From assembly GCA_018065085.1 (NCBI GenBank), contig JAGHUA010000061.1, forward strand, positions 8,991 through 72,990: a stretch of 64,000 bases of DNA, read 5' to 3'. Shown piece after piece: positions 8,594 through 64,000 of the stretch. The stretch is from Candidatus Liminaster caballi (lineage in GTDB: Bacteria > Bacteroidota > Bacteroidia > Bacteroidales > UBA3663). The translations under genes and the position numbers were made by a program. The notes under the pieces were generated by a model. That model was not told the origin of the DNA and did not search any database. It was given only the letters and a program-made list of their open reading frames with translations. Each line of letters starts with the position of its first letter. Position 1 is the stretch's first letter.

Positions 8594-10621
8594 ATGAAAA
8601 AAATCCTTACCGTATTGTTGGCATTGCTTTGTCTGTCGGCTCAGGCAAAGCAGAAACTGACCATCCACACATTCGAACAGGGGCAGGGTACTTTCCTGCT
8701 TGATGGCAAGCCTTTCGTCATCAAGGCCGCCGAATTGCATTACACACGTATTCCTGCCGAATATTGGGAGCATCGCATTCAGATGTGCAAGGCTCTTGGC
8801 ATGAATGCTGTGTGTCTTTATATCTTCTGGAACATCCACGAACCGGAGGAGGGCGTGTATGATTTCAGTGGCAACAACGATGTGAAGAAGTTCATCGGCC
8901 TCTGTCAGAAGAACGGCATGTGGGTCATCGTTCGTCCTGGTCCGTATGTATGTGCAGAGTGGGAGATGGGCGGTCTGCCTTGGTGGCTGCTCAAGTATGA
9001 GAATATGAATCTGCGCAGCCTTGATCCAAACTTCATGCGTGCTGCAGGCCGTTTCGAACATCGTCTTGCCGACGAGATTGCCGAATACCGACTTGAGAAC
9101 GGTGGTAATATCCTCATGGTGCAGGTCGAGAATGAGTTCGGTTCTTACGGCAAGGACAAACCGTATGTCAGTGCAATGCGCGATTCACTCCGTGCCTGCG
9201 GTTGGGACAAGACCCAGCTGTTCCAGTGCGACTGGTCGAGCAACTTCACCGACAATGCGCTCGATGATCTGCTTTGGACAATGAACTTCGGCACCGGTGC
9301 TAAAATCGAGAAGGAGTTCCGCAAGGTTGGCGAGATGCGTCCTGATGCTCCAAAGATGTGTTCTGAGTTCTGGTCGGGATGGTTCGATGGCTGGGGAACA
9401 GCTCATCAGACACGTCCATGGGAACCGATGGTAAACGGCATCAAGGATATGCTCGACAGCAACATCTCGTTCTCGCTCTATATGACTCACGGTGGTACAT
9501 CATTCGGACAGTGGGCTGGTTCCAACAACACCGGCTTTGCACCTGACTGCACCAGCTATGACTATGATGCTCCGATCAACGAACAGGGCAGCACCACCGA
9601 GAAATACTTCAAGCTCCGCGAGCTCTTGCAGAAATATTCCGATGTCAAGCTTCCTGCCATTCCTAAGGCAAAGCCAATCGTTGCCATCAACGAATTCGAA
9701 CTGACCGAGTTTGCTCCTCTCTTCGCAAGCGAGAATCTCCCTAAGGCTGTTACTTCGCACGATATTCATCCAATGGAATACTACAACCAGGGCTGGGGTT
9801 CGATGATCTACAGCTGCCAGTTGCCAGTCACACAGAACGAAGGTCTTCTGACCATCAAGGATATGTGCGACTACGCCATCGTCTTCATCGACGGCAAGCT
9901 CATCGGTCGTCTCTATCGTGGCAATGGTTTCGAGAATACCCTGCGTGTTCCTGCTTGTCCAAATGGCGGACGCTTAGAGATCTTCATTGAGGCAATGGGC
10001 CGTATCAACTACAGCCGCCTTATCAATGATCCTAAGGGCATCACCGAGAGCGTTGAACTCTCCACAACCCAGCCTGGCGCAGAGGTTCTTTACAACCTCA
10101 AGGACTGGAATGTTCAGCTCCTGCCTGTGTCATACGACTTTGTCAAGGGCATGAACTATAAGACTCTTGCCGAGCAGGGACTTGATCGCGATATGCTTGT
10201 TTCGCCATCTCCTGTCCGCATGCCGGTTCAGACCACATTGCGCGAACGTGCCGGCTACTACAAGGCATCGTTCAATGTCAAGAAGGTTGGTGATACCTAT
10301 CTCGACATGAGTCAGTGGAGCAAGGGCTTTGTATGGATCAATGGCAAGTGCCTTGGCCGATTCTGGAACGTCGGTCCGCAGCAGACCCTCTATGTGCCTG
10401 GCTGCTGGCTTAAGAAGGGCGTCAATGAGATTATCATCATGGACATCTGCGGTCCTCAGCGAGCCACGGTTGCCGGTCTCACCGAACCAAACATCTCTGA
10501 CCTTCACCGCGAAAATCTCCCAACAGACGCTGTCAAGGGAGTTACCGCCGGTCGCAAGCCAAAGAAAACTCTCGACCCTAATGCAACCGTAGGCAATGAT
10601 GCCGCACCTGGAGCTAAGTAA
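8594..10621 (+). CDS. Beta-galactosidase, glycoside hydrolase family 35
   Basis: 675 aa with a signal peptide. GH35 signatures GPYVCAEWEMGGLPWWL and MVQVENEFGSYG. Confidence 0.9.
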   Translation: MKKILTVLLALLCLSAQAKQKLTIHTFEQGQGTFLLDGKPFVIKAAELHYTRIPAEYWEHRIQMCKALGMNAVCLYIFWNIHEPEEGVYDFSGNNDVKKFIGLCQKNGMWVIVRPGPYVCAEWEMGGLPWWLLKYENMNLRSLDPNFMRAAGRFEHRLADEIAEYRLENGGNILMVQVENEFGSYGKDKPYVSAMRDSLRACGWDKTQLFQCDWSSNFTDNALDDLLWTMNFGTGAKIEKEFRKVGEMRPDAPKMCSEFWSGWFDGWGTAHQTRPWEPMVNGIKDMLDSNISFSLYMTHGGTSFGQWAGSNNTGFAPDCTSYDYDAPINEQGSTTEKYFKLRELLQKYSDVKLPAIPKAKPIVAINEFELTEFAPLFASENLPKAVTSHDIHPMEYYNQGWGSMIYSCQLPVTQNEGLLTIKDMCDYAIVFIDGKLIGRLYRGNGFENTLRVPACPNGGRLEIFIEAMGRINYSRLINDPKGITESVELSTTQPGAEVLYNLKDWNVQLLPVSYDFVKGMNYKTLAEQGLDRDMLVSPSPVRMPVQTTLRERAGYYKASFNVKKVGDTYLDMSQWSKGFVWINGKCLGRFWNVGPQQTLYVPGCWLKKGVNEIIIMDICGPQRATVAGLTEPNISDLHRENLPTDAVKGVTAGRKPKKTLDPNATVGNDAAPGAK

Positions 10622-10628
10622 ACACATC

Positions 10629-13100
10629 ATGATGAAACATACACTCATCCTTGGGCTGATGGCAATGCCTTTGCTTGCCATCGGCCAGAATGAAAATCTT
10701 GTTCTCCGTTACGATCGTCCTGCCACATTCTTTGAGGAAAGCCTCGTCATTGGCAATGGCACGCTTGGTGCTGCTGTCTATGGCGGAGTGGATGAGGACA
10801 AGATCTCGCTCAACGATCTTACTCTTTGGACAGGCGAGCCGTCGGCCGATAATGTATATTCGCCAGAGGCATGGCGTCACCTCGACCATGTGCGTCAGCT
10901 TCTCGACAATGAGGACTATGCCCACGTCGATGAGGCATACAAAGCCGTTGAGGGCGAATATTCACAGAACTATCAGCCATTAGGCACATTGTCGTTCACC
11001 GCTTTTGGCAATACAGCTTCTGGCATGGCAGACTATCATCGCAGTCTGTCTCTGTCCGATGCCACGGCGCGCGTAGTTTTTGGCAATTACGAACGCCAGT
11101 ATTTCGCATCTGCTCCAGACAGCGTCATCGTCATCCACATCAAGGCAAAGAATGGCGCCAGCATCAACGAGAAGATCGGTTTCCACAGTCTTCTTCCATA
11201 TCGCAGCCAGAGCTATCTGCTCGATGGCGGCAAAAAGTCGAAGAACTGGGAACGAACCATCGCACAGGGCGATAAGTCTCACACATCGGCAGATATGGTC
11301 ATCGATGGCTATACCGCCTATGCCTCGTCGCCAAACTACACCGGCACCATCGACTGGAAGGACAACAGCACTCGTGGCATACATTTCCGCACCATTGTCC
11401 GCGCTATTGCCCTTGACGGCGGATCTGTCAGGAACACCTACAGCGACATGCTTGAGGTGCGCGACTGTAAAGAACTGCTCGTGCTCGTCAGCAATGTGAC
11501 AAGCTATAATGGACGATACAACGATCCTGTCAAGGCAGGCCGTGACTATAAGAACGATGTTCAGGCACGCATCGATGCAGCCTCACAGAAGACTGTGGCG
11601 CAGCTCCATGCTGCCCATAAGGCTGATTTCGCTCAATACTTCAACCGTCTGACCATCGATCTCGGTCAGACTGCAGCCGATATTGCCGCCAAGCCTACTG
11701 ACGTCCAGTTGCGCGAGTATGGCGAACTCAATCAGTCCAATCCTGACCTTGAGGAACTCTATTTCCAGTTTGGCCGTTACCTGCTGATCTCTTGTTCGCG
11801 CACTCATGGTGTTCCTGCCAACCTGCAGGGTCTGTGGAACGAGCAGATTCTGCCGCCATGGAGCTGCAACTACACATCGAACATCAACCTTGAGGAAAAT
11901 TACTGGCCTGCCGAGGTTGCAAACCTCAGTGAGATGCATCAGCCAATGCTCGATTTCGTCAAGAGCCTTCCTCGTTCGGGCGAGATTACTGCCCGTCATT
12001 ATTATAACGTGCAGAAAGGATGGTGTCTCGGTCACAACACCGACATCTGGGGTCTGACCAATCCTGTAGGCCGTTCGGAAGGCGATCCGAGTTGGGCTGC
12101 ATGGAATATGGGTGGCGCATGGGTTGCTACACATCTTTGGGAACACTATACATTCACCCTCGACAAGGCTTTCCTCTCGTCGGCATATCCAGTGTTGAAG
12201 GGCGCAGCCGATTTCTGCCTCGGATGGATGATCGAGAAGAACGGCTATCTGATGACCTCACCTTGCACATCGCCTGAGAACCGTTATCTCATTCCGGAGA
12301 CAGGCGTCACGGGTGCTACGTTCTATGGCGGTTTTGCTGACATAGCAATGATCAGGGAATGTCTGCTTGACACACGTGCCGCAGCCGTCGAGCTCGGCAT
12401 TGACAAGGCCTATTGCGATACGATCGATGCCACGCTGAAACGCCTCCTGCCTTATCGCATCGGCAAGCGTGGCAACCTTCAGGAGTTCTATCATGACTGG
12501 GAGGGCGAAGATCCCGAGCATCGTCATCAGAGTCATCTGTTTGGTCTTTATCCTGGTCATCACATCACCGTTGCCAATACTCCAAAACTTGCCAAGGCGT
12601 GTGCCAAGACCCTTGAGATAAAGGGTCCGAAGAGCACAGGATGGAGCACGGGCTGGCGCGTCAATCTTCAGGCTCGTCTCCATGATGCAGACAAGGCTTA
12701 CGGCATCTATCGAATGCTTCTCACCTATATTGCTCCCGAAGGAAAGGGTGGAGGCACCTATCCAAATCTTCTCGACTCTCATCAGCCATTCCAGATCGAT
12801 GGCAACTTTGGCGGTTGTGCAGGCGTGATGGAGATGCTTGTCCAGTCGTCATTCGAGAGTGGCAAACCTGCTGTGGTCGAACTTCTGCCTGCCGTTCCTG
12901 CCGTATGGAAGGAAGCCGGTCATATCTCCGGCATCTGTGTTCGCGGCGGCTATGTGCTCGATTTTGCGTGGAAGAATGGCAAGATCACATCTCTAAAGGT
13001 GACTTCGCGCCGCTCTGACACAGGTTCTCTCAAGATCACTTGTGGCAGCAGAAAGTGGTCGGCAAATGTTGCTGCCGGCGAGACAAAGACCATTCTCTGA
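10629..13100 (+). CDS. Glycoside hydrolase family 95 (alpha-L-fucosidase type)
   Basis: The ORF opens at 10596, but a signal-peptide-like start MMKHTLILGLMAMPLLAIGQ lies at 10629. N-terminal LRYDRPA..FEESLVIGNGTLGAAVYGG and a central (alpha/alpha)6-type region are typical of GH95. Confidence 0.85.
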   Translation: MMKHTLILGLMAMPLLAIGQNENLVLRYDRPATFFEESLVIGNGTLGAAVYGGVDEDKISLNDLTLWTGEPSADNVYSPEAWRHLDHVRQLLDNEDYAHVDEAYKAVEGEYSQNYQPLGTLSFTAFGNTASGMADYHRSLSLSDATARVVFGNYERQYFASAPDSVIVIHIKAKNGASINEKIGFHSLLPYRSQSYLLDGGKKSKNWERTIAQGDKSHTSADMVIDGYTAYASSPNYTGTIDWKDNSTRGIHFRTIVRAIALDGGSVRNTYSDMLEVRDCKELLVLVSNVTSYNGRYNDPVKAGRDYKNDVQARIDAASQKTVAQLHAAHKADFAQYFNRLTIDLGQTAADIAAKPTDVQLREYGELNQSNPDLEELYFQFGRYLLISCSRTHGVPANLQGLWNEQILPPWSCNYTSNINLEENYWPAEVANLSEMHQPMLDFVKSLPRSGEITARHYYNVQKGWCLGHNTDIWGLTNPVGRSEGDPSWAAWNMGGAWVATHLWEHYTFTLDKAFLSSAYPVLKGAADFCLGWMIEKNGYLMTSPCTSPENRYLIPETGVTGATFYGGFADIAMIRECLLDTRAAAVELGIDKAYCDTIDATLKRLLPYRIGKRGNLQEFYHDWEGEDPEHRHQSHLFGLYPGHHITVANTPKLAKACAKTLEIKGPKSTGWSTGWRVNLQARLHDADKAYGIYRMLLTYIAPEGKGGGTYPNLLDSHQPFQIDGNFGGCAGVMEMLVQSSFESGKPAVVELLPAVPAVWKEAGHISGICVRGGYVLDFAWKNGKITSLKVTSRRSDTGSLKITCGSRKWSANVAAGETKTIL

Positions 13101-14309: not shown

Positions 14310-15797
14310 ATGATTAATCAACCAACAGTGAAGCTTGGTATCGTAGGCGTTAGCCGCGACTGCTTCCCCGTAACTCTTACACAGGCTCGTCTTGCTGCTG
14401 TCATGGCAGAGGTTAAGGCAGCCGGTCTTCCAGAAGTTTATGATTGTCCTGTAACAATCGAGAACGATGTTGACACCTACAAGGCTCTCGATTGGGCTAA
14501 GGAGAATGGCATCAACGCAGTATGTATGTTCCTCGGCAACTTTGGTCCTGAAGGTCCAACCACATTGTTCTGCCAGAAGTTCGGCGGTCCATGCATGGTA
14601 CTCGCAGCCAAGGAGGAAGGCAAGGCTAATCTTGCTTCTGACCGTGGTGACGCTCTTTGCGGTGTGCTCAACTTCTCTTACTCAGTTGGTCTCCGTCGTC
14701 TCAAGGTATATATCCCAGAGTATCCAAACGTAAACCCACAGGAGGCTGTCAAGGAACTCGCTGACTTCCGCAACATCGCTCGCGTTGTTATCGGCGTTCG
14801 CAACCTCAAGGTTATCGGCTTTGGTCCACGTCCATGGGACTTCCTCGCTTGCAACGCACCTATCCAGCCAATGTATGACCTCGGCATCGAGGTTCAGGAG
14901 AACTCTGAGCTCGACCTCAAGAAGGCATTCGACGAGATTCTCGCTAAGCCAGGCAAGGCTGCTGAGGTAGCTGCTGTCGCTAAGGATATGGAGACAGAAC
15001 TCGGTCCTTCGCGCAACACATATCCTGAGATCATCAACAAGATGGCTCAGCTTGAGGTTACCCTCCTCGATTGGTACGAGAACCAGAAGGGTGGCTCTAA
15101 GTATGCTGTATTCGCTAACAAGTGCTGGCCAGCATGGCAGCCAATCTTCGAGTTCGAGCCTTGCTACGTTAACTCACGTCTCACAGGCCGTGGCATTCCT
15201 GTAGCTTGTGAGGTTGACCTCTACGGTGCTCTCTCTGAGTTCATGGCTGAGTGCGCTACTGAGAAGCCTGCAACTCTCCTCGACATCAACAACTCTGTTC
15301 CTGCTGACGTTATCCCAGCCGGTGCAAATCTTGCTGGCGCCGATCTCAAGGATCTCTACATGGGCTTCCACTGCGGTAACACATGCTCACAGTGCATGAA
15401 GGACTGCAAGATCAAGTATCAGCTCATCCAGGCTCGTCTCATGAGCGAGGATATCACCAAGGGTACTCTCGAAGGTCAGATTGCTCCAGGCAAGTCAACA
15501 ATGTTCCGCATCCAGTCTAACTCTGACGCTAAGCTCGTTTCTTACATCGCTCAGGGTGAGTTCCTCGATGTTGCTCCATGCTCATTCGGTGGCATCGGTA
15601 TCCACGCTATCCCAGGCTTCGCACGTTTCTATCGTCACGTCCTCGTTGGCAAGCGTTTCCCTCACCACGGAGCATACGCTTTCGAGCACTGCGGCAAGGT
15701 TCTCTTCGAGGCTCTCAAGATGCTCGGCGTTGAGGATATCAATACTCCACTCCCAGCAGGTCAGCTCTATCCAGGCGAGAACCCATTCGCTATCTGA
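14310..15797 (+). CDS. L-fucose/L-arabinose isomerase family protein (COG2407-like sugar isomerase)
   Basis: 495 aa. KLGIVGVSRDCFP, FLGNFGPEG and ACEVDLYGAL segments resemble FucI-family isomerases. Strong codon bias similar to the PFOR gene. Lies next to the GH95 fucosidase. Confidence 0.6.
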   Translation: MINQPTVKLGIVGVSRDCFPVTLTQARLAAVMAEVKAAGLPEVYDCPVTIENDVDTYKALDWAKENGINAVCMFLGNFGPEGPTTLFCQKFGGPCMVLAAKEEGKANLASDRGDALCGVLNFSYSVGLRRLKVYIPEYPNVNPQEAVKELADFRNIARVVIGVRNLKVIGFGPRPWDFLACNAPIQPMYDLGIEVQENSELDLKKAFDEILAKPGKAAEVAAVAKDMETELGPSRNTYPEIINKMAQLEVTLLDWYENQKGGSKYAVFANKCWPAWQPIFEFEPCYVNSRLTGRGIPVACEVDLYGALSEFMAECATEKPATLLDINNSVPADVIPAGANLAGADLKDLYMGFHCGNTCSQCMKDCKIKYQLIQARLMSEDITKGTLEGQIAPGKSTMFRIQSNSDAKLVSYIAQGEFLDVAPCSFGGIGIHAIPGFARFYRHVLVGKRFPHHGAYAFEHCGKVLFEALKMLGVEDINTPLPAGQLYPGENPFAI

Positions 15798-15827
15798 TCA
15801 GTTTTCTGACAGACTATATACAATTAA

Positions 15828-15855
15828 CCCCGCGCCGCAAGGTGTGGGGTTTTTT
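15828..15855 (+). terminator. Rho-independent terminator
   Basis: Stem CCCCGCGCC, loop GCAA, stem GGTGTGGGG (9 bp including 2 G-U pairs), followed by TTTTTT. Lies 30 nt after the stop codon. Confidence 0.6.
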
Positions 15856-15872
15856 AGTCTATTCAGTATTTC

Positions 15873-16111
15873 CGATTAAATTTACGGATAATTCATAAAA
15901 TTCATGGGTAATTTATGGAAATTCGTGTAAAGAAAGAAAAAAAAATTACGATTAAATTCACGGGTAATTCATGAAAATTCGCGTTAAGAAAGACAGAGAG
16001 TTTTAAACGTAAATGACCGCGAATTAGCCGCGAATTATTTCGTGAATTATGGATTTTGAACACAAATTATCACGAATGAACCATAAATTATTCAAAAAAA
16101 ATTCATGAATT
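15873..16111. repeat. Dyad-symmetric block of phased AATTCRYG-type octamers with 21-bp subrepeats
   Basis: Direct repeats 15873-15937 and 15949-15993. AATTYRYG-type words start at 15890, 15899, 15910, 15920, 15944, 15955, 15966 and 15976. Their reverse complement YRYRAATT starts at 16018, 16029, 16041, 16061, 16071, 16082 and 16104. Confidence 0.7.
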
Positions 16112-16167
16112 TTCGTTTAGCAGCGTAAGCATTAAATATAAATGTAGTCATTTCGTATATCAGTGCA

Positions 16168-16503
16168 GAAAGTTTCATTTGGATTTCCCAAGTCTTCGGA
16201 AATGCCGCAGAAAGTTTCATTTGGATTTCCCGAGTCTTCGGAAGTGCCGCCGAAAGTTTCTTTGGGATTTCCCAACTCTTAGGAAATGCCGCAGAAAGTT
16301 TCTTTAGGATTTCCCGAGTCTTAGGAAATGCCGCCGAAATTTTCATTTGGATTTCCCGAGTCTTAGGAACTGCTGGCGAAAGTTTCATTTGGATTTCCCG
16401 AGTCTTAGGAAATGCTGGCGAAAGTTTCATTTGGATTTCCCAACTCTTAGGAAATGCCGCCGAAAGTTTCTTTGGGATTTCCCAGCTTTCTGGAAACGCT
16501 CTT
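16168..16503. repeat. Tandem array, 8 units of exactly 42 bp (family A)
   Basis: Units start at 16168, 16210, 16252, 16294, 16336, 16378, 16420 and 16462. Consensus GAAAGTTTCATTTGGATTTCCCRAGTCTTMGGAAATGCCGCM. No spacers and no indels. Confidence 0.95.
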
Positions 16504-18059
16504 TAGACAACAGCCTCTATAAGCGTGCGGCCTTTCAACACTACAGGAGGCAGCAAACCAGATTGCTTGGTCTTGTTGAAGCAGAAACTAAGGAGATATC
16601 CTTCTTGCAGGTCGAAATATTCAAGATAACGGCAGAGTTGTTCCTCACCACGCTCATTGTAAGCGTTGCCTCTCCAGATCTTCAGTTCGATGACGTATTG
16701 TCTGCCGAGGTAGTCGATGACTACGTCCATACGGTCGTGGTCGCGTGTCTGTTCTTCGATGTGATAGCTGCCCACTCCGTTGATGACAGGACGCAGGTAG
16801 GTAAGGAACACCTTGCGTGCATCGTTCTCAATGAATTCGTTGTCATGATCCATCTTGTAGGTCTGGTTCATGTGGACGATGAAACGTTGCATTAGGAGAG
16901 GAATGTCCAGAATGCCGTCGTGGATAAACTGACTCTTGTCGGTCATGCCCTGAATAAAGTCGGCAGAATTCTTATCCTGTGAGATGAAGTATTCGTAAAA
17001 CCAAATCTCAAACATGCGGCATGCAACGGCAAATGCGCCATTCTGCTGCTTGACGAAGTTGAACATCAGAGCGAGGTTGGTAGCTTTGTCGTAATAATTG
17101 AATGAATAGCGATAGCCATTGAAAAGCACGCCCCTGATAGTACGCTCCAATTCTGGGAACTCATCAAGTTTCTTGGCAATGTCATCAAACAGAGTACTAC
17201 CCTCGGTCAGTATTTTGTTCACCGCCTTCAGCACACCATCTTTATTCCATGTCCACTGTTCTGCATCGATAATCTGGCAGATGCGGCTCACGAGGAATGG
17301 ATAGCCGGAGGTGTAGTCGCGGATCATCTGAGCGACAGCCTTCTCGTCAAAGTCCAAACCGTGATCAGCTTTGTATTCAGCCAGCATTCCTGCAATACCT
17401 TCTGCCGACAGACTCATATCGACATCGAAGGGAACGGCGATGTTCCAAGGGCTGTTGTATTGGTGTTGATCCTCTGGACGAATCTTAAGTTTAAGGTTCT
17501 TGACATCATAGACACCAGCGAGGATGACAGATTGGAAGGTAGGATGACTGTCGCGATTAAGAAACATGCTTCGCAATCCTCCGAGGAATTTGATGAAGCC
17601 GTCATTATTGCCCGCCTGATCTACTTCGTCAATCAAAACGACAACCGGTTTTGAAGACAGTTCACAAAGTTCAGCCACAATGTCGGTAAAATCAAAGTTG
17701 TCAACAGACTTCAAACCTCTTGGTGCAACCTCTTCAAGTAGTTCCTTGACTTTGTCGTCTTTGGGTGCAATGCGTGTTTCGCGTCTCAATAACCTAAGGA
17801 ATGCAGCATTTGCTGTTGCGGCATCCAGAAAGTAATTGTCATCAACACCTTCAAAACTAATACTGAATACGAGATACTCATCTGATAGATGCTTTCTGAT
17901 AGCCTCCAACGTCGTTGTTTTGCCATACTGCCTGCCGCGATTTATGCAGAAATAGTCACCCTTGGTCACCATCTTTCGGATGATTTCCAGACGTTCGGTG
18001 ATGTCCACCATATAGTGTTCATTAGGGCGACAGGTGCCCGCTGTGTTGAATGTTTTCAT
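16503..18059 (-). CDS. AAA-ATPase-like protein with C-terminal PD-(D/E)XK nuclease-like domain (Bacteroidales multi-copy family)
   Basis: P-loop NRGRQYGKTT, Walker B VVVLIDEVD, and C-terminal DVVIDY...YVIELKIW (D...ELK nuclease motif). The ATG at 18059 is preferred over the TTG at 18098 because a -7 box lies at 18096-18103. Confidence 0.75.
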   Translation of the reverse strand: MKTFNTAGTCRPNEHYMVDITERLEIIRKMVTKGDYFCINRGRQYGKTTTLEAIRKHLSDEYLVFSISFEGVDDNYFLDAATANAAFLRLLRRETRIAPKDDKVKELLEEVAPRGLKSVDNFDFTDIVAELCELSSKPVVVLIDEVDQAGNNDGFIKFLGGLRSMFLNRDSHPTFQSVILAGVYDVKNLKLKIRPEDQHQYNSPWNIAVPFDVDMSLSAEGIAGMLAEYKADHGLDFDEKAVAQMIRDYTSGYPFLVSRICQIIDAEQWTWNKDGVLKAVNKILTEGSTLFDDIAKKLDEFPELERTIRGVLFNGYRYSFNYYDKATNLALMFNFVKQQNGAFAVACRMFEIWFYEYFISQDKNSADFIQGMTDKSQFIHDGILDIPLLMQRFIVHMNQTYKMDHDNEFIENDARKVFLTYLRPVINGVGSYHIEEQTRDHDRMDVVIDYLGRQYVIELKIWRGNAYNERGEEQLCRYLEYFDLQEGYLLSFCFNKTKQSGLLPPVVLKGRTLIEAVV

Positions 18060-18095
18060 ATCTGATGTAGCGAAAAGTGTACTCTCTATGCCTTG

Positions 18096-18103
18096 CAAAT
18101 ATA
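18096..18103 (-). promoter_or_regulatory. Bacteroidetes -7 promoter box (TATATTTG on the minus strand)
   Basis: The plus strand reads CAAATATA. Lies 37 nt upstream of the ATG at 18059. Confidence 0.45.
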
Positions 18104-18311
18104 TGAAAAATATCTTAAATGCGAGTAAAATAGCTCTTGAAAATGGCGTTTTTTTATGAAACTTTATTACTTATGTTATACTAAACTGACATTTTTGTAT
18201 GCATATAGGTATAAAAGAATGCAGCGACTATCAACTCCAAGATGAAGTGATAATCGCTGCAAACTACAATATATAGGTATCAATACCTGTAGTTGATCGA
18301 ATGCTTAGAGA

Positions 18312-18473
18312 TTAGTTCTCGTAGTCAGCCCAATCGTTACCGCGGTTTGAAGGTGCAAAGTTGTTGTTTGCATCATCAACGTTTGGCTGTTTGTTGTTAA
18401 ATGAAGAAACTGCAATGATTGCTGCGCTTTCGATTTCTACCATTTTGATAGCAGGCTTAATATATGTCTTCAT
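18312..18473 (-). CDS. Small hypothetical protein (53 aa), below the ORF-track size cut-off
   Basis: My translation is MKTYIKPAIKMVEIESAAIIAVSSFNNKQPNVDDANNNFAPSNRGNDWADYEN. It starts 28 nt after the adhesin stop on the same strand, and a hairpin plus T-tract lies downstream (~18219-18258). Confidence 0.4.
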   Translation of the reverse strand: MKTYIKPAIKMVEIESAAIIAVSSFNNKQPNVDDANNNFAPSNRGNDWADYEN

Positions 18474-18500
18474 ATCTGTAATGCATTATCGGATTAAAGA

Positions 18501-21500
18501 TTACTTGCTCAAGATCTTCTTGCCATTACGGATGATGAGACCCTTATAATTCTCGTTTACACGCAGACCATTGAGGTCGTAGCTTGTCGCATTCTCAGTA
18601 GCCTCGACATTCATGATGCCTGTGCCATTCTCAAGATCCTCAAAACTGAAGCCATGAACTAAGCTTGCTGCAGAACTATTAGGAATTGCGAGGTAAGCAC
18701 CACCTTCCTTAGCATAGAATGCAGCACCATCAGCAGCACCAAAGTAGAAACCAAGTCCAGTCTTGTTCGTATAGTCGTCGTAAGCAAGTTTGTAGAACTT
18801 GTAATCTCCAGTCATAGCTTCGCTGGCTGGCTTGAGGAGATTGGCAGGAGCGGCTCCGAACTGATAGTTCGAAACAGGCATGTATGAAACGGTGTTGACA
18901 TCAGCCTTCAAGAGAACACCTGTGTTTGCTGGAACGTGGATGCCCTCAAAACCGCTTGCGCCAATTGGCTTGAGCTCGTCGTAGCTGCTTAATGCAATCA
19001 TATCAGCATCAAGAGTAACTGCGTAAACGTCCTCGGTGCCAATAATTACAACATCAGAGGTGCTGCTGAATGTAGCCCAGTACTTTCCTTCGTTGTCCTG
19101 TGCAATAAGAGTAAGATTAGCCGAATTTGACCCATCATATTCTGGAGTTGGTTCACCGAAGGTAGCAGAGATTGTTACATTGGCAGCTGGCATTGTGAAC
19201 TGGTTGTCAGTTACGGTAATCGTAGCCTGAGTATCATCTCTTCTGACATTCCAAGACTTAAATACATAACCGTCTTCAGCAGAAGGAACAAGAGTGATAA
19301 CTGTGCCGATAGTAGCAGTTGTTACATCGCCTACAACTTCTACCGAACCGTTTGCAATGGCATCGCTTACGGTAATAGTATAGTTGATAGCGTTAAATAC
19401 GGCAGCTACAGTTACGTCTTCGGCTGGCATAGTAAATGAACTTCCAACAATTGCCTCACCATTTACTGTGATGCTTGTGAGCTCATAACCTTCATTAGGA
19501 GTGGCTGTCACGTTAACAGTAGCACCTTCTTCTGCTTCTGTTACATCTGTAGAGAGTGTACCGTTTTCGTGTGAGCCAATAGTTACGGCATAAGTTGGAG
19601 CAGGAGTTGGGGCTTCAGAACCCTCTATTATTACTGTTGCTGAAGTAACTGAAACTGCATCAAACAAACCTCCTGTGCAAGAGAACGTAACAGTTTCGGC
19701 ACCCTCGGCAGATTCCCAAACTCCTGTAGTGCTGTTGTATCCACTAGGATTAGATGAAAGCATGCTAGGAGAATTACATGTCAAATGGATTTCGACAATC
19801 TTACCTGCGTCTGATGTAAATACTAAATTATCATAGAGTGTGCCCACTACTGCATAAAATGAGCCACCAGATCCGGATCTATAATATGTAGCAGTTACAG
19901 GATCGTGAGTTATCGTATTAGAGGTATTGCTTGTGAAATCAAAATCAATCTCAATAACATTGCCGACTTCAACGAATGTAGCAGAAACTGTTACATCTGA
20001 TTCTGGCATTGTGAATGTGTTGTTTGTAACAGGTATGTTATTACTGTTTGCATCAACAACGTTCCATGCAGATAATTTATAGCCTGAAGCAGGAGTTGCA
20101 GTAAGTGTAACTGTTTCGCCAGCCTCAGCTTCAGACTTATCTGCAGTAACTGTACCATTTGCAATCGAAGGATTAACAGTTACAGCATACTTAACTGGAG
20201 GAACAATCTTCTCAAGAACGAAATTCTTTGCGTAAAGATACCATTCGTCTCGATCAGATACGCCGTGGATAGCGAAATAGTAAACTCCAGGGGTAGAGAT
20301 TTCAAACTCCTGAGAGTATGTAACGTCAGATGCAGTTGGCGTTGTTACTCCAATAATTTGTGTAGTCAAAGCATCAGCTGTTGGAGCGGTACCATAGACA
20401 ATCTCAAATTTTTCTGGATATCTTACACCGTATTCTCGCATATCTACAGAGAGACGATAATTGCCACCAGAAATAGTGATACCAGGAGTTACAAGATAGT
20501 CATTCATAGCTTGAGTCGAATTCCACTGAATGCGAGCTTGTCCATCAGCGAAAATCCACTTTACACCATCATTGTTAGCATCAATCACTGTGAATTCATC
20601 AAACAATGCCTGTGAGGTCAATGCGTTTGAGTAATTGTCATTGATAGGAGGCTTTTGATCGAATGTAGCAGAAACGGTAACAGCCTCAGCAGGCATAGTG
20701 AATTGGTTGTTTGCCACAGCAACAGGAGTTCCGCCTGCAGTAGTTGTTACAGCCCAAGAACCGAACTGATATCCAACAGCAGGAGTTGCAGTAAGCGTAA
20801 CTGTTTCGCCAGCCTCAGCCTCAGTCTTGTCAGCAGTAACAGTACCATTTGCAATCGAAGGATTAACAGTTACTGCATAAGTTGGAGCTTTTGCAATGAT
20901 TGAGAGATTGTCAAAATATGCATGGTAGTATGCACCCTTGAGATTTACACGAATCATCACCTTAACCCAATTGTCATTCTTGTAATCACCAGTAAAGTCT
21001 ACTACTGCTCTCTGATAGCTATCGGTAGGATTACTAATTGTCTCTATCTGATTCTCATTTCCATTCTGATCGAGAACAATAACATCAAATGTAATATTCG
21101 AAGCGTCAGCTTTATAATCAAAAGAAAGCTGAGCATTAGAACCTGCAAAATCAATCTTGCCAGTGATGAAATTCAGCGCCTCGTTACCAACCCAAGTATA
21201 CATATCATACTCTGAGTTGGATTCTCCGCCCCAACAATTGGTTCCTTCATACTTGTACCTGTTGCTTGAAGTAGAGAAATCTACGTTGAAAGGAAGAGTA
21301 TAAGGAGCACCAACAGAGATAGCGTTTGGTGTATAGGTTGCAGAAGAAGAACCTGCAGATGTGACTGCCTTGATTGCAAACTTCAGCTCACCTTGTTCTC
21401 CTGAATTCAGATCATAGTCGAATGAGTATGTGGTCTCGGTGATTGGAGCATTGTTGATGACTGAGCCTTCAGTGTAGTTCTTGTAAGGATATACATTGTA

Positions 21501-22940
21501 AGTTACTGTTCCAAGATAGCCATTGTTCTGGCCACGGGTTGGAGCATTCCATGTAAGAGTTACGCGGTTGCCGTCAACAGTCATCTGAGCGTTGGAAGGA
21601 GAGGCTGGAAGATCAGAACCGATGTAAGGACTTCTTACCTTTCGAACTTTGCCAACAAGAGCGCCATCGGTGATGACAACGCCATAATTGTTCTCTCCAT
21701 TTTCGGCATCTTCGTCCACATAAGAAACTTCAGCGCCAGCAATGGCGTTTCCAGAAGCAATTTCAACATCAGAACCGCTAATCTCATTGCTCCATGGATC
21801 CTGACAGCGATAGATGTGGTAGGTCAACTGCTTGCCAGAAGTATATGCATCACCACCATAAGTTGCAGTTGGCATATTGAAGCTGATAGTTGCGCTAAGT
21901 TCACCATTCTCCCCAGCCTCTACGTCAATGCTTTCTACAGCAGCAGGCATGTCGTCTGCAACTGGTTCAATGGCAAAGTCATCAACATACAGATCGCCTG
22001 TGTTCGGATTTGACCAACATTTTACTGCAAAATAATAGGTGTCTGTAGAAGGAGCAACGAATTCTGGCTGATCAAATGTCTCCCATCCAGTACTAAAAAT
22101 CATTGCCATACCAAGTACGGTTTGATTAAGTCCGGCTGCAGTGGCTTCTGTACCGGCAACAATGCCCGAATAGTGCCAACCTCCCTGTGGAGACTTGCCC
22201 TTGAAGCTAACGTTATAGCGCTTACCTTCTGTAAGGTTTGCTGCACAAATAACTACATAATCATTTACAGAAGAAGGTGAATTTGTATTAAGAACAAGAA
22301 TACTATTACCACCATCGTTGCCTAACGCAAACTTATAGTCATCTTCATTTGCATCAATAGCTAAAAGATTCTCCTTTTCTTCGTCAGTTTCGAATTGATT
22401 TAGATAAGGAAGAGAAACTACTTGAGGAGTGCCATCAAGACTTGGAGCTGGTTCTGGGTCTGAGCCTGGAGTGGAACCGTCCAAACCACCTTCGACCCAA
22501 ACCTGTGCTCCAGAAATATACATATCCATTTCTGTTCCATTTGAATGGAAAGTAATACTTTTGGCAGAGCCTGTCCATGTTTTTGTATCCGGATCCCAAG
22601 AACCGACGCCATCTGTAGTTATATTGTACTCATAACCGTCAGTGTTGCCCCAATTATTAATGAAACCGCTCAACACGATTTTTTCGATATTATTACCACT
22701 CGAAGCAATTACCAAATTCCAATCATAATCAGAACCATTGCAGTAAATGTTTGCACCTTTGTCATAACTATGAGTAGTCGCCGTAACGCAAGTACCTGAA
22801 GGAGTATACGAAATACCACCTTGGAAATTAATAGAGACATCTGCATCTTGTGCGTACGTCGGCCCAGCCCACGATACGCACACAAACATGAGCATCAGGA
22901 ACCTGAGCCATGAATGCATTTTTGAAAAATGATTTTTCAT
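18501..22940 (-). CDS. Giant secreted repeat protein or adhesin with a T9SS C-terminal sorting domain
   Basis: 1479 aa with a signal peptide (FVCVSWAGPTYAQ). Has at least 5 Listeria-Bacteroides-type repeats (YAVTVNPSIANGTVTADK.EAEAGETVTLTATPA.GY...FTMP...VTVSATF). Has two cleaved-adhesin/choice-of-anchor-like modules (DANEDDYKF..., DANNDGVKW...). The C-terminus YDLNGLRVNENYKGLIIRNGKKILSK is typical of a T9SS CTD. Confidence 0.8.
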   Translation of the reverse strand: MKNHFSKMHSWLRFLMLMFVCVSWAGPTYAQDADVSINFQGGISYTPSGTCVTATTHSYDKGANIYCNGSDYDWNLVIASSGNNIEKIVLSGFINNWGNTDGYEYNITTDGVGSWDPDTKTWTGSAKSITFHSNGTEMDMYISGAQVWVEGGLDGSTPGSDPEPAPSLDGTPQVVSLPYLNQFETDEEKENLLAIDANEDDYKFALGNDGGNSILVLNTNSPSSVNDYVVICAANLTEGKRYNVSFKGKSPQGGWHYSGIVAGTEATAAGLNQTVLGMAMIFSTGWETFDQPEFVAPSTDTYYFAVKCWSNPNTGDLYVDDFAIEPVADDMPAAVESIDVEAGENGELSATISFNMPTATYGGDAYTSGKQLTYHIYRCQDPWSNEISGSDVEIASGNAIAGAEVSYVDEDAENGENNYGVVITDGALVGKVRKVRSPYIGSDLPASPSNAQMTVDGNRVTLTWNAPTRGQNNGYLGTVTYNVYPYKNYTEGSVINNAPITETTYSFDYDLNSGEQGELKFAIKAVTSAGSSSATYTPNAISVGAPYTLPFNVDFSTSSNRYKYEGTNCWGGESNSEYDMYTWVGNEALNFITGKIDFAGSNAQLSFDYKADASNITFDVIVLDQNGNENQIETISNPTDSYQRAVVDFTGDYKNDNWVKVMIRVNLKGAYYHAYFDNLSIIAKAPTYAVTVNPSIANGTVTADKTEAEAGETVTLTATPAVGYQFGSWAVTTTAGGTPVAVANNQFTMPAEAVTVSATFDQKPPINDNYSNALTSQALFDEFTVIDANNDGVKWIFADGQARIQWNSTQAMNDYLVTPGITISGGNYRLSVDMREYGVRYPEKFEIVYGTAPTADALTTQIIGVTTPTASDVTYSQEFEISTPGVYYFAIHGVSDRDEWYLYAKNFVLEKIVPPVKYAVTVNPSIANGTVTADKSEAEAGETVTLTATPASGYKLSAWNVVDANSNNIPVTNNTFTMPESDVTVSATFVEVGNVIEIDFDFTSNTSNTITHDPVTATYYRSGSGGSFYAVVGTLYDNLVFTSDAGKIVEIHLTCNSPSMLSSNPSGYNSTTGVWESAEGAETVTFSCTGGLFDAVSVTSATVIIEGSEAPTPAPTYAVTIGSHENGTLSTDVTEAEEGATVNVTATPNEGYELTSITVNGEAIVGSSFTMPAEDVTVAAVFNAINYTITVSDAIANGSVEVVGDVTTATIGTVITLVPSAEDGYVFKSWNVRRDDTQATITVTDNQFTMPAANVTISATFGEPTPEYDGSNSANLTLIAQDNEGKYWATFSSTSDVVIIGTEDVYAVTLDADMIALSSYDELKPIGASGFEGIHVPANTGVLLKADVNTVSYMPVSNYQFGAAPANLLKPASEAMTGDYKFYKLAYDDYTNKTGLGFYFGAADGAAFYAKEGGAYLAIPNSSAASLVHGFSFEDLENGTGIMNVEATENATSYDLNGLRVNENYKGLIIRNGKKILSK

Positions 22941-23063
22941 AAAATAAAGTTGTTAGTTAATAAAAAAAAGAAAAGATATAGTTTGTAATAATCTTTGTTT
23001 TACATAACACAATAGTACAGATATGCACACAATACGCACAATATGTACACGCGCAAAGCGGTG

Positions 23064-23071
23064 CAAAGATA
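23064..23071 (-). promoter_or_regulatory. Bacteroidetes -7 promoter box (TATCTTTG on the minus strand)
   Basis: The plus strand reads CAAAGATA. Lies ~124 nt upstream of the adhesin ATG at 22940. Confidence 0.35.
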
Positions 23072-23177
23072 TTAAAGATTTTTCACATTTGGAGTGTGCT
23101 GTATGTAAAAAGTGTGAAAACGCATACAAAATGAGCGTTTTTATAATGTTTGGTGTGCAAAATGAAAGCAAAAAGAG

Positions 23178-23217
23178 ACAAAAAAGAACCTGTTGTGTAG
23201 CATTGGTACACAACAGG
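23178..23217 (-). terminator. Rho-independent terminator of the aguB-like gene
   Basis: 11-bp perfect stem CCTGTTGTGTA/TACACAACAGG (23189-23217) with a 7-nt loop. The plus-strand A-run at 23180-23188 is the T-tract on the minus strand. Confidence 0.65.
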
Positions 23218-23261
23218 TATATAGCATTTTGCTATGATAAAGAGGTAGTTCTGACAGATGT

Positions 23262-24578
23262 TTACTTCTTCAGCTTCTGCGATGCCTCTTTTGTAAATAC
23301 AGAGACGCTTTCGAAGAATGATGAGGTCTTGGACTTTATGCTGTCGATGAGGCCAGGAGCTTTGTCATCGATATATTTGCCAGTAGCAGAGACGGCTTCG
23401 GTGACTGTTTCGCCTGTTGCCTTCGACGCATCCTTAATGGCTTCTTTCGCTACCTTGGCTTTTTCTTTCGTAGCGCTATAATATGATGATGTGGCGTCAG
23501 AAGTTTCTTTTGCTGCATCCTTGACACCATCTGTTACAGTCTCTGTTCCATCTTTGACGGCATCGACGGCTGTTGTAGATGCATCGACTACAGCATCGGT
23601 TGCATCGACGATGGTGGTTTTGGCATCATCAATCAGATCGCTGACCTTGTCAAGAACCTGAGCATCGGCAGTATGGAGGGCGAATGTCATGGCAAAGGCG
23701 CAGACGGAAAGGAGGAACCGTTTGGCGAGAGGCGCAAACTCCTCGATGCGACGGTCACGCAGGAACGGCCACCAGCGGCGTACGTTTTCAGATCGTTTCA
23801 TGTCGATCTCGACAATCATAAGCGTCGGTTCTGTGCCAGCCTCTGCAAGGAACTCGCCCTGAGGACCAGCCACAAACGAATGTCCCCAGAACTCGATGCC
23901 GTTGGTCTGACCGGATGGGTCGGACTCCCAGCCGCAGCGATTCACGGCAATGACTGGCAATCCGTTGGCAACGGCATGTCCGCGCTGAACTGTCTGCCAT
24001 GCGCCAAGCTGACGCTGTTTCTCTTCCGGCGTGTCGCTGCTCTCCCAACCGATGGCAGTAGGGTAGATGAGAAGTTCGGCTCCGCGCAGGGCCATGAGAC
24101 GCGCGCCTTCGGGATACCATTGATCCCAGCAGACCTGTACACCAAGACGTCCGACGGATGTCTGAATTGGGTTGAACCCGAGATCGCCCGGAGTGAAATA
24201 GAATTTTTCATAGTAGGCAGGATCGTCGGGGATGTGCATCTTGCGATACTGTCCGGCAATGCTTCCATCCTTTTCGAACACAACTGCTGTATTATGATAG
24301 AGACCGGCAGCGCGACGCTCGAACAGGCTTGTGACGAGCACAACTCCACATTCGGCGGCAATCTGCGAGTAGAATTCTGTGGAAGGACCGGGAATTGGTT
24401 CGGCAAGATCGAAGTTGTTGGTGTCCTCCACCTGGCAGAAATAGAGCGAGTTGTGGAGTTCCTGCAGAACGACCAGTTCTGCGCCCTGAGCTGCTGCGCG
24501 GCGGATGTCTGCGGCAAGATCCTGCATGTTCTGTGTGACATCGGCTGTCTTGGCCTGCTGTATGAGTGCTACTTTCAT
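23262..24578 (-). CDS. aguB: N-carbamoylputrescine amidase-like C-N hydrolase fused in frame to a signal-peptide-like segment and an Ala/Thr/Asp/Lys-rich tail
   Basis: The first ~295 aa carry nitrilase-superfamily motifs (VVLQELH, VCWDQWYPEGARL, ending WPFLRDRRIEEFAPLAKRF). The ORF then continues with LLSVCAFAMTFALHTADAQ and ~125 aa of low-complexity sequence. Confidence 0.7.
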   Translation of the reverse strand: MKVALIQQAKTADVTQNMQDLAADIRRAAAQGAELVVLQELHNSLYFCQVEDTNNFDLAEPIPGPSTEFYSQIAAECGVVLVTSLFERRAAGLYHNTAVVFEKDGSIAGQYRKMHIPDDPAYYEKFYFTPGDLGFNPIQTSVGRLGVQVCWDQWYPEGARLMALRGAELLIYPTAIGWESSDTPEEKQRQLGAWQTVQRGHAVANGLPVIAVNRCGWESDPSGQTNGIEFWGHSFVAGPQGEFLAEAGTEPTLMIVEIDMKRSENVRRWWPFLRDRRIEEFAPLAKRFLLSVCAFAMTFALHTADAQVLDKVSDLIDDAKTTIVDATDAVVDASTTAVDAVKDGTETVTDGVKDAAKETSDATSSYYSATKEKAKVAKEAIKDASKATGETVTEAVSATGKYIDDKAPGLIDSIKSKTSSFFESVSVFTKEASQKLKK

Positions 24579-24590
24579 ATTCTATATGGG

Positions 24591-24671
24591 GAAGTTAAAG
24601 GAGTTAAAGGAGTTAAAGGAGATAAAGAAGTTAAAGAAGTTAAAGAAGATAAAGGAGATAGGGCAGATAAA
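24591..24671. repeat. 9-bp microsatellite, 9 units (GRAGWTAAA)
   Basis: GAAGTTAAA GGAGTTAAA GGAGTTAAA GGAGATAAA GAAGTTAAA GAAGTTAAA GAAGATAAA GGAGATAGG GCAGATAAA. Lies between the GH2 stop (24680) and the aguB start (24578). Confidence 0.9.
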
Positions 24672-24679
24672 GACGTTTG

Positions 24680-34455: not shown

Positions 34456-34754
34456 ATCTCCTGTTCTCCAACCCTCGTATGTTGTGCGTTGTAATCGCGT
34501 ACCTTGTCATTGTCAGCCTTGTCACTTTCATCGCATACGGCATTGACAAATGGAAAGCGCGTCGCCAGCGCTGGCGCATCCCGGAATCTGCTCTTATCTG
34601 GCTGGCGGTTGCCGGTGGTTCCATCGCCGCGCTTTTTGCCATGCGCCTGTTTCATCACAAGACTCTGCACAAGAAATTTACTATTGGCATTCCTGTCATT
34701 CTTCTCGCTCAGCTTGCTCTGACTGCTTACCTTATCTTCGGAAATGCCAAATAA
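34452..34754 (+). CDS. DUF1294-family small membrane protein
   Basis: 100 aa. The segment IAYGIDKWKARRQRWRIPESALIWLAVAGGSIAALFAMRLFHHKTLHKKF is characteristic of DUF1294. Overlaps the Nudix stop by 4 nt. Confidence 0.8.
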   Translation: MNLLFSNPRMLCVVIAYLVIVSLVTFIAYGIDKWKARRQRWRIPESALIWLAVAGGSIAALFAMRLFHHKTLHKKFTIGIPVILLAQLALTAYLIFGNAK

Positions 34755-34760
34755 CCTGTT

Positions 34761-35121
34761 TTGGTTACATCTAAGAGTTGGGAACTAACCAAAAAAAGTC
34801 TGGCGGTTAGATTTAAGACTTGGGAACTAACCAAAATAATGTTTTTGGTTAGAACTAAGAGTTGGGAACTAACCAAAATAATGTTCTTGGTTAGAGTTAA
34901 GAGTTGGGAACTAACCAAAATGGTGTGCTTTGGTTAGAACTAAGAGTTGGGAACTAACCAAAATAATGTTTTCGGTTAGAACTAAGAGTTGGGAACTAAC
35001 CAAAATAATGTTCTTGGTTAGAACTAAGAGTTGGGAACTAACCAAAATAATGTTTTCGGTTAGAACTAAGACTTGGGAACTAACCAAAATAATGTTCTTG
35101 GTTAGAACTAAGAGTTGGGAA
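34761..35121. repeat. Tandem array, 8.5 units of 42 bp (family B), each unit hairpin-forming
   Basis: Units start at 34761, 34803, 34845, 34887 (43 nt), 34930, 34972, 35014, 35056 and 35098 (truncated). Consensus TTGGTTAGAACTAAGAGTTGGGAACTAACCAAAATAATGTTC with the inverted repeat TTGGTTAG/CTAACCAA. Confidence 0.95.
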
Positions 35122-35135
35122 TAAGAAAAAATGGT

Positions 35136-45095: not shown

Positions 45096-45156
45096 TAGAG
45101 GATCCTCGAAGTAAATATCGAGTTGGCGATTTAATCTAAGATCTGATTTAGCCTAA

Positions 45157-45196
45157 TAAAAAACTCCCGCATCCGTTAAAGATGCGGGAGTTTTTT
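45157..45196. terminator. Bidirectional rho-independent terminator between nadC and nqrF
   Basis: A-run, then the 10-bp perfect stem CTCCCGCATC/GATGCGGGAG with a 7-nt loop, then TTTTTT. Serves both convergent genes. Confidence 0.8.
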
Positions 45197-45209
45197 GTGT
45201 GGTGGCCTA

Positions 45210-56546: not shown

Positions 56547-56548
56547 TT

Positions 56549-57883: not shown

Positions 57884-57929
57884 TTGTCAGAGCAGTTTCT
57901 GACACATACGACGATACAAGACATAATCT

Positions 57930-58868: not shown

Positions 58869-58968
58869 AACCGATTGCGCAACACGTCCAAAAAGTGTTT
58901 AAAAACATATTTTTGCGAAAAATATTAAAAAAATGCAAGTTTTAGTTTGCAAATTGAAATATTTTATA

Positions 58969-58976
58969 TATATTTG
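58969..58976 (+). promoter_or_regulatory. Bacteroidetes -7 promoter box (TATATTTG)
   Basis: Matches TAnnTTTG 29 nt upstream of the GTG start at 59005. Confidence 0.45.
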
Positions 58977-59004
58977 CACCCGTAAATCTTAATCTTTAAT
59001 TGTA

Positions 59005-63856: not shown

Positions 63857-63899
63857 TTCGGCAGCATTCCCAATCGGGAGTGCTGCCGAATTCGTATTT
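63857..63899 (+). terminator. Rho-independent terminator after nifJ
   Basis: 13-bp stem (63859-63871 pairs with 63876-63888, one G-U pair) with a 4-nt loop, followed by a T-rich tail. Confidence 0.7.
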
Positions 63900-63908
63900 A
63901 ATTATTGC

Positions 63909-64000
63909 AAAACTTTCATTTGGACTTCCCAGGTCTTAGGAAATGCTAACAAAAGTTTCGTTTGGACTTCCCAAGTGTTCGGAAATGCTGCCGAAAGTTT
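63909..64000. repeat. Tandem 42-bp array, family A, second locus (truncated by the window end)
   Basis: Units run 63909-63950, 63951-63992, and from 63993 onward. Sequence AAAACTTTCATTTGGACTTCCCAGGTCTTAGGAAATGCTAAC / AAAAGTTTCGTTTGGACTTCCCAAGTGTTCGGAAATGCTGCC / GAAAGTTT..., in the same orientation as 16168-16503. Confidence 0.9.

Follow-up and report, generated by a model that had tools for sequence, protein, structure and literature searches.

Tandem 42-bp repeat arrays past gene 3' ends in the horse-gut Bacteroidales Candidatus Liminaster caballi: a putative young interspersed minisatellite family

MIRU are tandem units of 40-100 bp that occur in variable copy number at many intergenic loci of one lineage, lie between co-directional operon genes and have open frames in phase with the flanking genes, and in the pneumococcal BOX element a tandem module of 45 bp, boxB, is accompanied by boxA and boxC ends. 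To our knowledge, systems of the REP/RAYT type are essentially undescribed in gut Bacteroidales. Porphyromonas gingivalis carries MITEPgRS, which has up to 14 tandem 41-nt units and is found at about 20 intergenic loci (PMC2575886, PMC4596501). In Escherichia coli, gyrase binds to BIME-2 clusters and IHF to BIME-1 (cited in PMC2817692), and REP clusters have been described as combined terminator and mRNA stabiliser elements of the 3' untranslated region (3'-UTR) that are tied to convergent gene pairs (bioRxiv 10.64898/2026.03.23.713779). Here, we compare with these repeats a tandem array of 42-bp units, designated A1 (positions 16168-16503), that lies in a stretch of 64,000 nucleotides (the window) from the metagenome-assembled genome (MAG) of Candidatus Liminaster caballi, an uncultured horse-gut member of the Bacteroidales. 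An earlier reading of the bare sequence, referred to below as the original prediction, had suggested a phased protein-binding array for A1, with the plasmid F centromere sopC as its precedent and a multi-hairpin RNA or a terminator or insulator array as alternatives.

We read A1 as one locus of a young, lineage-specific interspersed minisatellite family in Candidatus Liminaster caballi, and put the probability of this reading at about 0.55. We favour it because related arrays recur at several loci (at least four arrays of two subfamilies in one genome), their edges are degenerate, one of them has a higher-order period, the 3' gaps that they occupy appear dispensable, relatives do not have them and no partner genes were found among the scanned window genes.

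A1 is composed of eight head-to-tail units, belonging to what we call family A, with the core-sense on the plus strand. Tandem Repeats Finder (TRF) reported it at 16168-16483 with a period of 42, 7.5 copies, 89% matches, 0% indels and a score of 478 (consensus GAAAGTTTCATTTGGATTTCCCGAGTCTTAGGAAATGCCGCC), the sequence printed in 42-bp register showed eight unit starts (16168, 16210 and so on to 16462), and a repeat search returned a start-to-start spacing of exactly 42 throughout (42 x6), which confirms the eight 42-bp units free of indels of the original prediction. All eight were also matched by a covariance model of the family A unit, R1, with E values from 1e-17 to 5e-13. Mismatches to the consensus number 1-5 of 42 in the internal units and 12 of 42 in the gene-side eighth unit, which is degenerate and abuts the stop codon of an ATPase gene. 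The inverted repeat that had been proposed for every unit, GGATTTCC-N9-GGAAAT(G)CC, is present in all eight, units 2, 5 and 8 having one-sided changes; the palindrome GAAAGTTTC, likewise proposed for each, occurs in seven, unit 5 reading GAAATTTTC. Variants of the core, TTCCC[A/G]A[C/G]TCTT[A/C]G, follow one another once per 42 bp from 16185 to 16450. Pattern searches showed that one 14-nt example on the plus strand (TTCCCAACTCTTAG, 16269-16282) is identical to the core of a second family, B, on the opposite strand, and in family A the core sits in an operator-like near-palindrome of 17 bp, TTCCCAAGTCTTAGGAA. As to its placement, the statement that the ATPase stop codon lies inside the last unit holds for just one base, the last of unit 8 (16503), which overlaps the TAA at 16503-16505 on the minus strand, and the array does stand between a terminator and that stop, but the terminator is 316 bp away and a spacer of 29% GC intervenes.

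TRF found three period-42 arrays in all in the window, A1, B and A2, each of which follows a gene 3' end, A1 and B lying between convergent genes, whereas the next gene after A2 is outside the window. Array B (34757-35121, core-sense on the minus strand), delimited by TRF, by the 42-bp register and by matches of a second covariance model, R2, holds 8.7 units, one of which is 43 bp long; its unit consensus differs from that of family A and its arms are TTGGTTAG/CTAACCAA. It fills the whole gap between two convergent genes, beginning 2 nt past the DUF1294 stop codon (34752-34754) and ending 14 nt short of the PmbA/TldD stop codon (35136-35138). The terminator scan returned no canonical terminator in this gap, of which B is the only structured element, whereas an ordinary convergent gap of the same window (45096-45209) holds a textbook bidirectional terminator. 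TRF additionally reported a higher-order period of 169 bp (four units) in B, and 11 of its 16 variant states fall in 12 linker columns, the arms and core being nearly invariant. Array A2 (63909-64000, plus strand; TRF start 63908/63909) belongs to family A by TRF and sequence, in the variant GGACTTCCC. It comprises at least 2.2 units, being cut by the window end, and model R1 matches units at 63909 and 63951 with E values of about 1e-15. A2 starts 77 nt past the stop codon of the pyruvate:ferredoxin oxidoreductase (PFOR) gene (60287-63832), directly downstream of that gene's intrinsic terminator (63857-63890, plus strand, terminator scan). The loop of this terminator (63862-63886) reads TTCCCAATCGGGA, and its first seven bases equal the start of the array core (TTCCCAA), which may be a coincidence or may hint that terminator hairpins seed arrays.

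A fourth array is known from a deposited protein alone. The translation of the only stop-free minus-strand frame of A1, used as a query against 5.8 billion protein clusters, had a single match, MBQ0058138.1 (P0121), and in a HMMER pass over 1.8 billion representatives this was again the sole convincing match, the other 77 being unrelated repetitive proteins. MBQ0058138.1 is a 'hypothetical protein' of 162 aa on a different, 25-kb contig of the Candidatus Liminaster caballi MAG, which is also the MAG of the ATPase beside A1 (MBQ0057920.1). It opens with five units of 14 aa, corresponding to 42 bp (MKVSAAFPKTWEVQ...), and nothing in the window corresponds to its tail outside the repeat. Judging from these units, we regard it as an annotation artefact, namely a family A array translated by the gene caller. 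This serves as a warning for MAG annotation, as one array entered GenBank under the label 'hypothetical protein' and these loci are points where assemblies break. Pattern and model searches detected no solitary A or B units in the 64 kb, which together with that protein make up the genome examined; the source is a short-read MAG, in which array copy numbers may be collapsed.

The kinship of the two families is carried by the core. Family A on the plus strand and family B on the minus strand have the exact 14-mer TTCCCAACTCTTAG in common, as well as the same C/G polymorphism within it and an upstream TTTGG, and 20,000 shuffles of the B consensus never had a word of more than 12 nt in common with the A consensus. 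Outside its own family, the B covariance model matches A units 3 and 7 best, in the corresponding orientation. The arms are self-complementary within each family and differ between them (GGATTTCC/GGAAAT(G)CC in A versus TTGGTTAG/CTAACCAA in B); the gap from TTTGG to the core is 2 nt in one family versus 4 nt in the other, and the period is 42 in both. Each unit has dyad symmetry. In its conserved segment, TTTGG-N(2-4)-TTCCCAASTCTTAG, the core is enclosed by inverted-repeat arms, and a variable linker is less well conserved than arms and core. Family B has lost the right half of the family A palindrome. By sequence comparison, A and B are related subfamilies with the same core and period and different arms. 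Because core and 42-bp period are kept while the arms differ, a sequence-specific constraint is implied, which could stem from a binding or mobilising factor; a core and period retained with the stem arms swapped are a signature of recognition by a trans-acting factor.

Beyond this genome the repeats were sought widely. The exact unit pattern TTTCNTTNGGAYTTCCCNNNNNNNNGGAAATGC had no occurrence in IMG/VR viral contigs, in 185,579 GTDB species (one genome each) or in 241 million JGI metagenome records, and the B pattern had none in viral contigs. Among 80 loci around the isomerase-like gene that precedes A1, taken from related Prevotellaceae/Bacteroidales MAGs (1.23 Mb, flanking protein identity up to 97%), neither family was detected by blastn, core pattern or covariance models; these loci show no downstream synteny, and 20 relatives have just a plain terminator after the orthologous isomerase-like gene. 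Our literature search turned up no publication about 42-bp repeats of Prevotella or Bacteroidales. A pattern of two cores 38-46 bp apart matched the JGI metagenomes twice, in both cases in unrelated GC-rich organisms (L083 and L084), which is probably within chance for this search design. The match in L083 is a 21-bp repeat; L084 (JGI Ga0233425_10001201) carries at 10540-10666 a perfect array of 3 x 42 bp, containing TTCCCAAGTCTTCG and a GC-rich hairpin, that adjoins a terminator and a repeat protein of 3,323 aa. Other hairpin-bearing arrays were observed just past stop codons in relatives, namely 41 bp x 5.7 in L006 (13349-13582), 41 bp x 2.6 in L002 (11472-11580) and 72 bp x 4.7 in L014 (11166-11507). 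Within the L006 unit, TTCCGAAAACTTCGGAA agrees with the A unit in 14 of 17 positions; this is suggestive of kinship, and we did not rely on it since model R1 does not detect the L006 array. Taken with PgRS of P. gingivalis, the L006 and L002 arrays hint that a period of about 41-42 bp is recurrent in Bacteroidales.

Measured against the described systems, the arrays appear by their architecture to most resemble bacterial intergenic repeats such as REP/BIME. Like REP/BIME of enterobacteria and pseudomonads (BIME-2, REP325), they are clusters of dyad-symmetric units after gene 3' ends, including gaps between convergent genes, and they are lineage-specific, as REP/BIME are lineage-specific and strain-variable; the roles that may be proposed for them, in termination, mRNA 3' protection and protein binding, are also those proposed for REP/BIME (PMC2817692; bioRxiv 10.64898/2026.03.23.713779). 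However, BIME units alternate in orientation whereas the units here are all head-to-tail, and the stems here are AT-rich and weak. No GTAG/CGTC tag was seen by eye, no solitary copies in 64 kb and no RAYT or Y1 transposase in the window. The likeness to MITEPgRS (MITE464) and BrickBuilt, compared by architecture, is that of species-specific, intergenic, multi-locus repeats of Bacteroidales with spacer-less units, of 41 nt in PgRS or 23 nt in BrickBuilt (PMC2575886, PMC4596501); in these, however, terminal inverted repeats of the IS5 type are combined with leader/tail or A/B repeats, which the arrays here lack. A transposable element of the miniature inverted-repeat type was considered for the arrays themselves and rejected, as there are no shared flanks and no inverted termini: upstream of the first unit there is no homology between the left flanks of A1 and A2, and A1 on its right side, like B on either side, extends to a native stop codon. 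MIRU and boxB resemble the arrays in having tandem units of about 40-100 bp at multiple intergenic loci of one lineage, with no sequence relationship.

On the minisatellite reading, the arrays would gain and lose units and become homogenised through slipped-strand mispairing and unequal recombination, since edge units are degenerate, neighbouring units share variants and B has a four-unit period. New loci would be seeded by an unspecified route, the core serving as recognition element as REP hairpins do for their transposase. From their position and by analogy with REP, the arrays would be co-transcribed into the 3' ends of flanking genes and, once transcribed, would fold into strings of hairpins that act, as in E. 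coli REP, as non-canonical terminators, 3'-end protectors or insulators, impeding read-through and exonucleases between convergent genes. By the same analogy they probably act as multi-hairpin 3'-UTR or insulator DNA, and between convergent genes they take the place of canonical terminators. Array B is strongly structured, at z = -8.95 for the minus and -6.6 for the plus strand, and its core-sense centroid is a string of local hairpins (CUAACCAAG...UUUGGUUAG) between which a conserved 16-nt segment, UUCCCAACUCUUAGUU, is single-stranded. For A1 as a whole z is about -3 on either strand, via long-range pairing of quasi-palindromic units, and paired cells amount to 95% in A and 96% in B. Support for a role of complementarity comes from the comparison between families (same core, different self-complementary arms) and not from covariation within them. 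Taken at face value, the arrays are another lineage-specific intergenic repeat family, useful mainly as a variable-number tandem repeat marker for strain typing.

Several observations weigh against this account. The folding energy of one A unit does not stand out from that of shuffled sequence (plus strand -6.7 kcal/mol, z = -0.06; minus strand -8.4 kcal/mol, z = -1.0), the A2 units have a different preferred fold and both carry an uncompensated C.A mismatch in the proposed stem, and no compensatory stem changes were found in either family (10 A units), all variation being one-sided; the hairpin that had been proposed for the unit is therefore weak. The repeat units have neither the GC stem nor the U tract typical of this genome's terminators, of which those at 15826-15851, 45160-45197 and 63857-63890 served for comparison: by these criteria A1 gave one weak match with a 5-bp stem and the B gap none. 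A purely selfish or neutral satellite also fails to explain why the 14-nt core is identical across subfamilies with replaced arms, or why 42 bp are kept despite internal indels (2 vs 4 nt). As to dispersal machinery, we saw no terminal inverted repeats, target duplications, shared flanks or solitary units, and no transposase in the window. Finally, the evidence base is about 64 kb plus one protein of a MAG.

The constancy of core and period bears on a different explanation, in which each unit offers one putative site (TTTGG...TTCCCAASTCTTAG, the core in its arms) to a sequence-specific protein, and in which, with a period of about four helical turns, every site faces the same side of the helix; such an array would recruit a nucleoid, topology or boundary factor to gene ends, a centromere like sopC being a special case. 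In its favour are the identity of the 14-nt core between subfamilies with different arms, the period of exactly 42 in A1, A2, B and the fourth array though the spacing within units differs, the operator-like near-palindrome around the family A core, the stronger conservation of arms and core than of linker, and the precedent of BIME-2 with gyrase and BIME-1 with IHF (cited in PMC2817692). We nevertheless consider it unlikely, given that the scanned window genes include no candidate binding protein and no par or rep gene, that all close relatives lack the arrays, which is unusual for a chromosome-level site, that family B is without the right palindrome half, and that the similar arrays of relatives have a 41-bp period, which loses helical phase over 6-8 units. 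The centromere version in particular is not supported by the context: sopC is likewise a spacer-less tandem array with an inverted repeat in every unit (about 43 bp), but it is a single locus of plasmid F beside sopAB, and here 64 kb of core chromosome hold at least three arrays, from two subfamilies, a fourth being on another contig, with no ParA, ParB or Rep found among the scanned genes and no plasmid or phage similarity. A more general and rather improbable version treats the units as phased recognition modules for a sequence-specific factor acting on DNA or on single-stranded DNA or RNA hairpins, the invariant TTTGG...TTCCCAASTCTTAG serving for recognition, the arms being merely self-complementary and the period held at 42; the arrays would then be an undescribed boundary or insulator system at gene ends of Prevotella-like Bacteroidales or, equivalently, the trace left by a new mobilisation enzyme that is guided by hairpins. 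Should there be a protein that binds or mobilises the repeats, the arrays would offer a tractable entry into repeat spread and 3'-end regulation in gut Bacteroidales. Function mainly as RNA, either an independently expressed multi-hairpin RNA that titrates a protein or small RNA via its single-stranded core in the manner of CsrB or a dedicated bidirectional terminator or insulator, fits the genomic positions at least as well as the phased protein-binding array, and the B fold with its exposed UUCCCAACUCUUAGUU (z = -8.95), the standing of B as sole structured element between two convergent genes, and the tendency of one-sided stem changes to give G.U on the core-sense strand (9 wobble versus 6 unpaired cells) all speak for it. 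Yet that wobble bias comes down to about 6 versus 2 independent events and is not significant, compensatory substitutions are missing within either family, one A unit alone is no more stable than its shuffles and the proposed stem is broken in the A2 units. Moreover, Rfam 15 gave nothing at gathering thresholds and, at permissive ones, sub-threshold noise only (E >= 0.1), no promoter is evident, B lies 14 nt past a stop codon and hence could belong to a 3'-UTR only, and relatives lack the arrays, so that we hold a mainly RNA-based function doubtful.

The array period equals 14 codons, and at all three array edges that abut stop codons (ATPase, DUF1294 and PmbA) the strand's only stop-free frame is in phase with the gene, giving open runs of 136 codons for the ATPase (16092-16505), 60 for DUF1294 (34752-34934) and 74 for PmbA (34914-35138); the chance of all three being in phase is about 0.04. 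Together with the listing of the fourth array in GenBank as a 162-aa hypothetical protein, this might suggest that the repeat is translated, as a small repetitive protein or as a C-terminal extension through read-through of the TAA. We give this hardly any credence, as no stop-free frame shows a synonymous bias (synonymous to nonsynonymous variant codons 2:10 and 2:9 in A1, 1:12 and 1:14 in the others), the C-termini of the genes are native (the ATPase ends in ...EAVV*, a 90%-identical homologue in ...EAIV*), the 43-bp unit of B breaks both frames, and outside the MAG 15 billion proteins yielded just unrelated repetitive proteins with other periods and 15-45% identity. A coding repeat was rejected on the codon counts, by which A1 is not under coding constraint. 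From the sequence the in-phase frames appear unexplained rather than evidence of translation, and they might be part of how recognition modules act. It is also very improbable that A1 is an assembly artefact, or a repeat collapsed or expanded by metagenome assembly. The source is a short-read MAG, the contigs of several relatives end close to the orthologous gene, and a Logan contig (run SRR10505694) with an identical PmbA gene, the only other sample of the species, breaks inside the first B unit; but in this contig both the junction of gene and array and the first unit are exactly the same, so that the junction also stands in a raw-read assembly, though the run may share the MAG's sequencing project, the same family stands at four separate loci, and the ordered differences among units (1-5 mismatches, shared variants, a degenerate edge) are unlike a spurious loop.

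The gene content of the window bears on the remaining candidates. By Pfam it is ordinary core chromosome, with efflux pump genes, GH35, GH95, GH2, UvrD helicase, TldD/PmbA, D-Ala-D-Ala ligase, the Nqr operon, type IX secretion (T9SS) genes and PFOR; Pfam and PADLOC revealed no transposase and no Par, Rep, Cas or ToxN-like protein in most window genes (54987-60189 left out), no tRNA genes were found in the window, and blastn gave no match in 72,556 plasmids or 50,697 phages. On the minisatellite reading, A1 is not a partition site, CRISPR array, antitoxin RNA or protein-coding repeat. That it is no CRISPR array, as had been stated before, follows from the contiguous units without spacers and the lack of cas among the scanned genes. 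The antitoxin RNA arrays of type III systems (ToxI, CptI, AntiQ) likewise consist of spacer-less tandem direct repeats, theirs of 34-45 nt, but they precede a terminator and a co-directional toxN, abiQ or cptN, whereas A1 and B are flanked by the 3' ends of housekeeping genes. PADLOC had no hit on the adjacent ATPase and no toxN-like open reading frame was found, and a ToxIN-like system was rejected as both sides are 3' ends of convergent housekeeping genes. An iteron origin, which the AT-rich spacer had prompted us to consider, was rejected as A2 and B have no such spacer and there is neither a Rep gene nor a switch in GC skew. Bacteroidetes promoter boxes (TTTG / TAnnTTTG), sought by eye, were limited to -7-like boxes with one mismatch and no correctly spaced -33 box, and on this pattern we would not take the units as evidence of promoters.

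A1 is flanked by convergent genes, the isomerase-like gene (14310-15797) on the left and the ATPase gene on the right. The former has a canonical intrinsic terminator outside the repeat (15826-15851, plus strand, terminator scan), with a GC-rich stem of 11 bp and a T run. The latter (16503-18059, minus strand) encodes an AAA_35/AAA-ATPase_like protein of 518 aa by Pfam, a 100% match to MBQ0057920.1, and its TAA touches unit 8. Between terminator and A1 lies the AT-rich spacer (15858-16167, 310 bp, 29% GC), characterised by motif count and direct-repeat search. It has 10 copies of AATTCRYG/CRYGAATT versus 2 in the other 63.7 kb, six of these 8-mers being forward copies on its left and four reverse copies on its right, and a direct repeat of 31 nt (15870-15900 and 15946-15976). 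Its membership in the repeat element is doubtful, as A2 and B are without such a spacer; by its motifs it looks like a separate, putative cluster of binding sites or an interspersed element. The related MAG L081 has motifs akin to the 8-mer (GATAATTCGTGATAATTCG, ACGGTTAAATGCC) between its genes, at about 2940-2990 and 9560-9700.

A1 further stands at the left edge of a segment, 16000-24000, with a GC content of 42-45% versus 50-55% elsewhere, which carries the AAA_35 ATPase gene and a gene for a protein of 1479 aa with InlB B-repeat (Flg_new_2) domains. Homologues of the ATPase have a different gene context in every relative examined, none of which showed arrays, and because these contexts all differ, the segment may represent an island that was acquired or is variable. 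Near 24.6 kb, where one gene borders on the next, the window also has a tandem repeat of 9/18/36 bp (24589-24677; GAAGTTAAAGGAGTTAAA...), which is probably a coding K/E/V-rich repeat.

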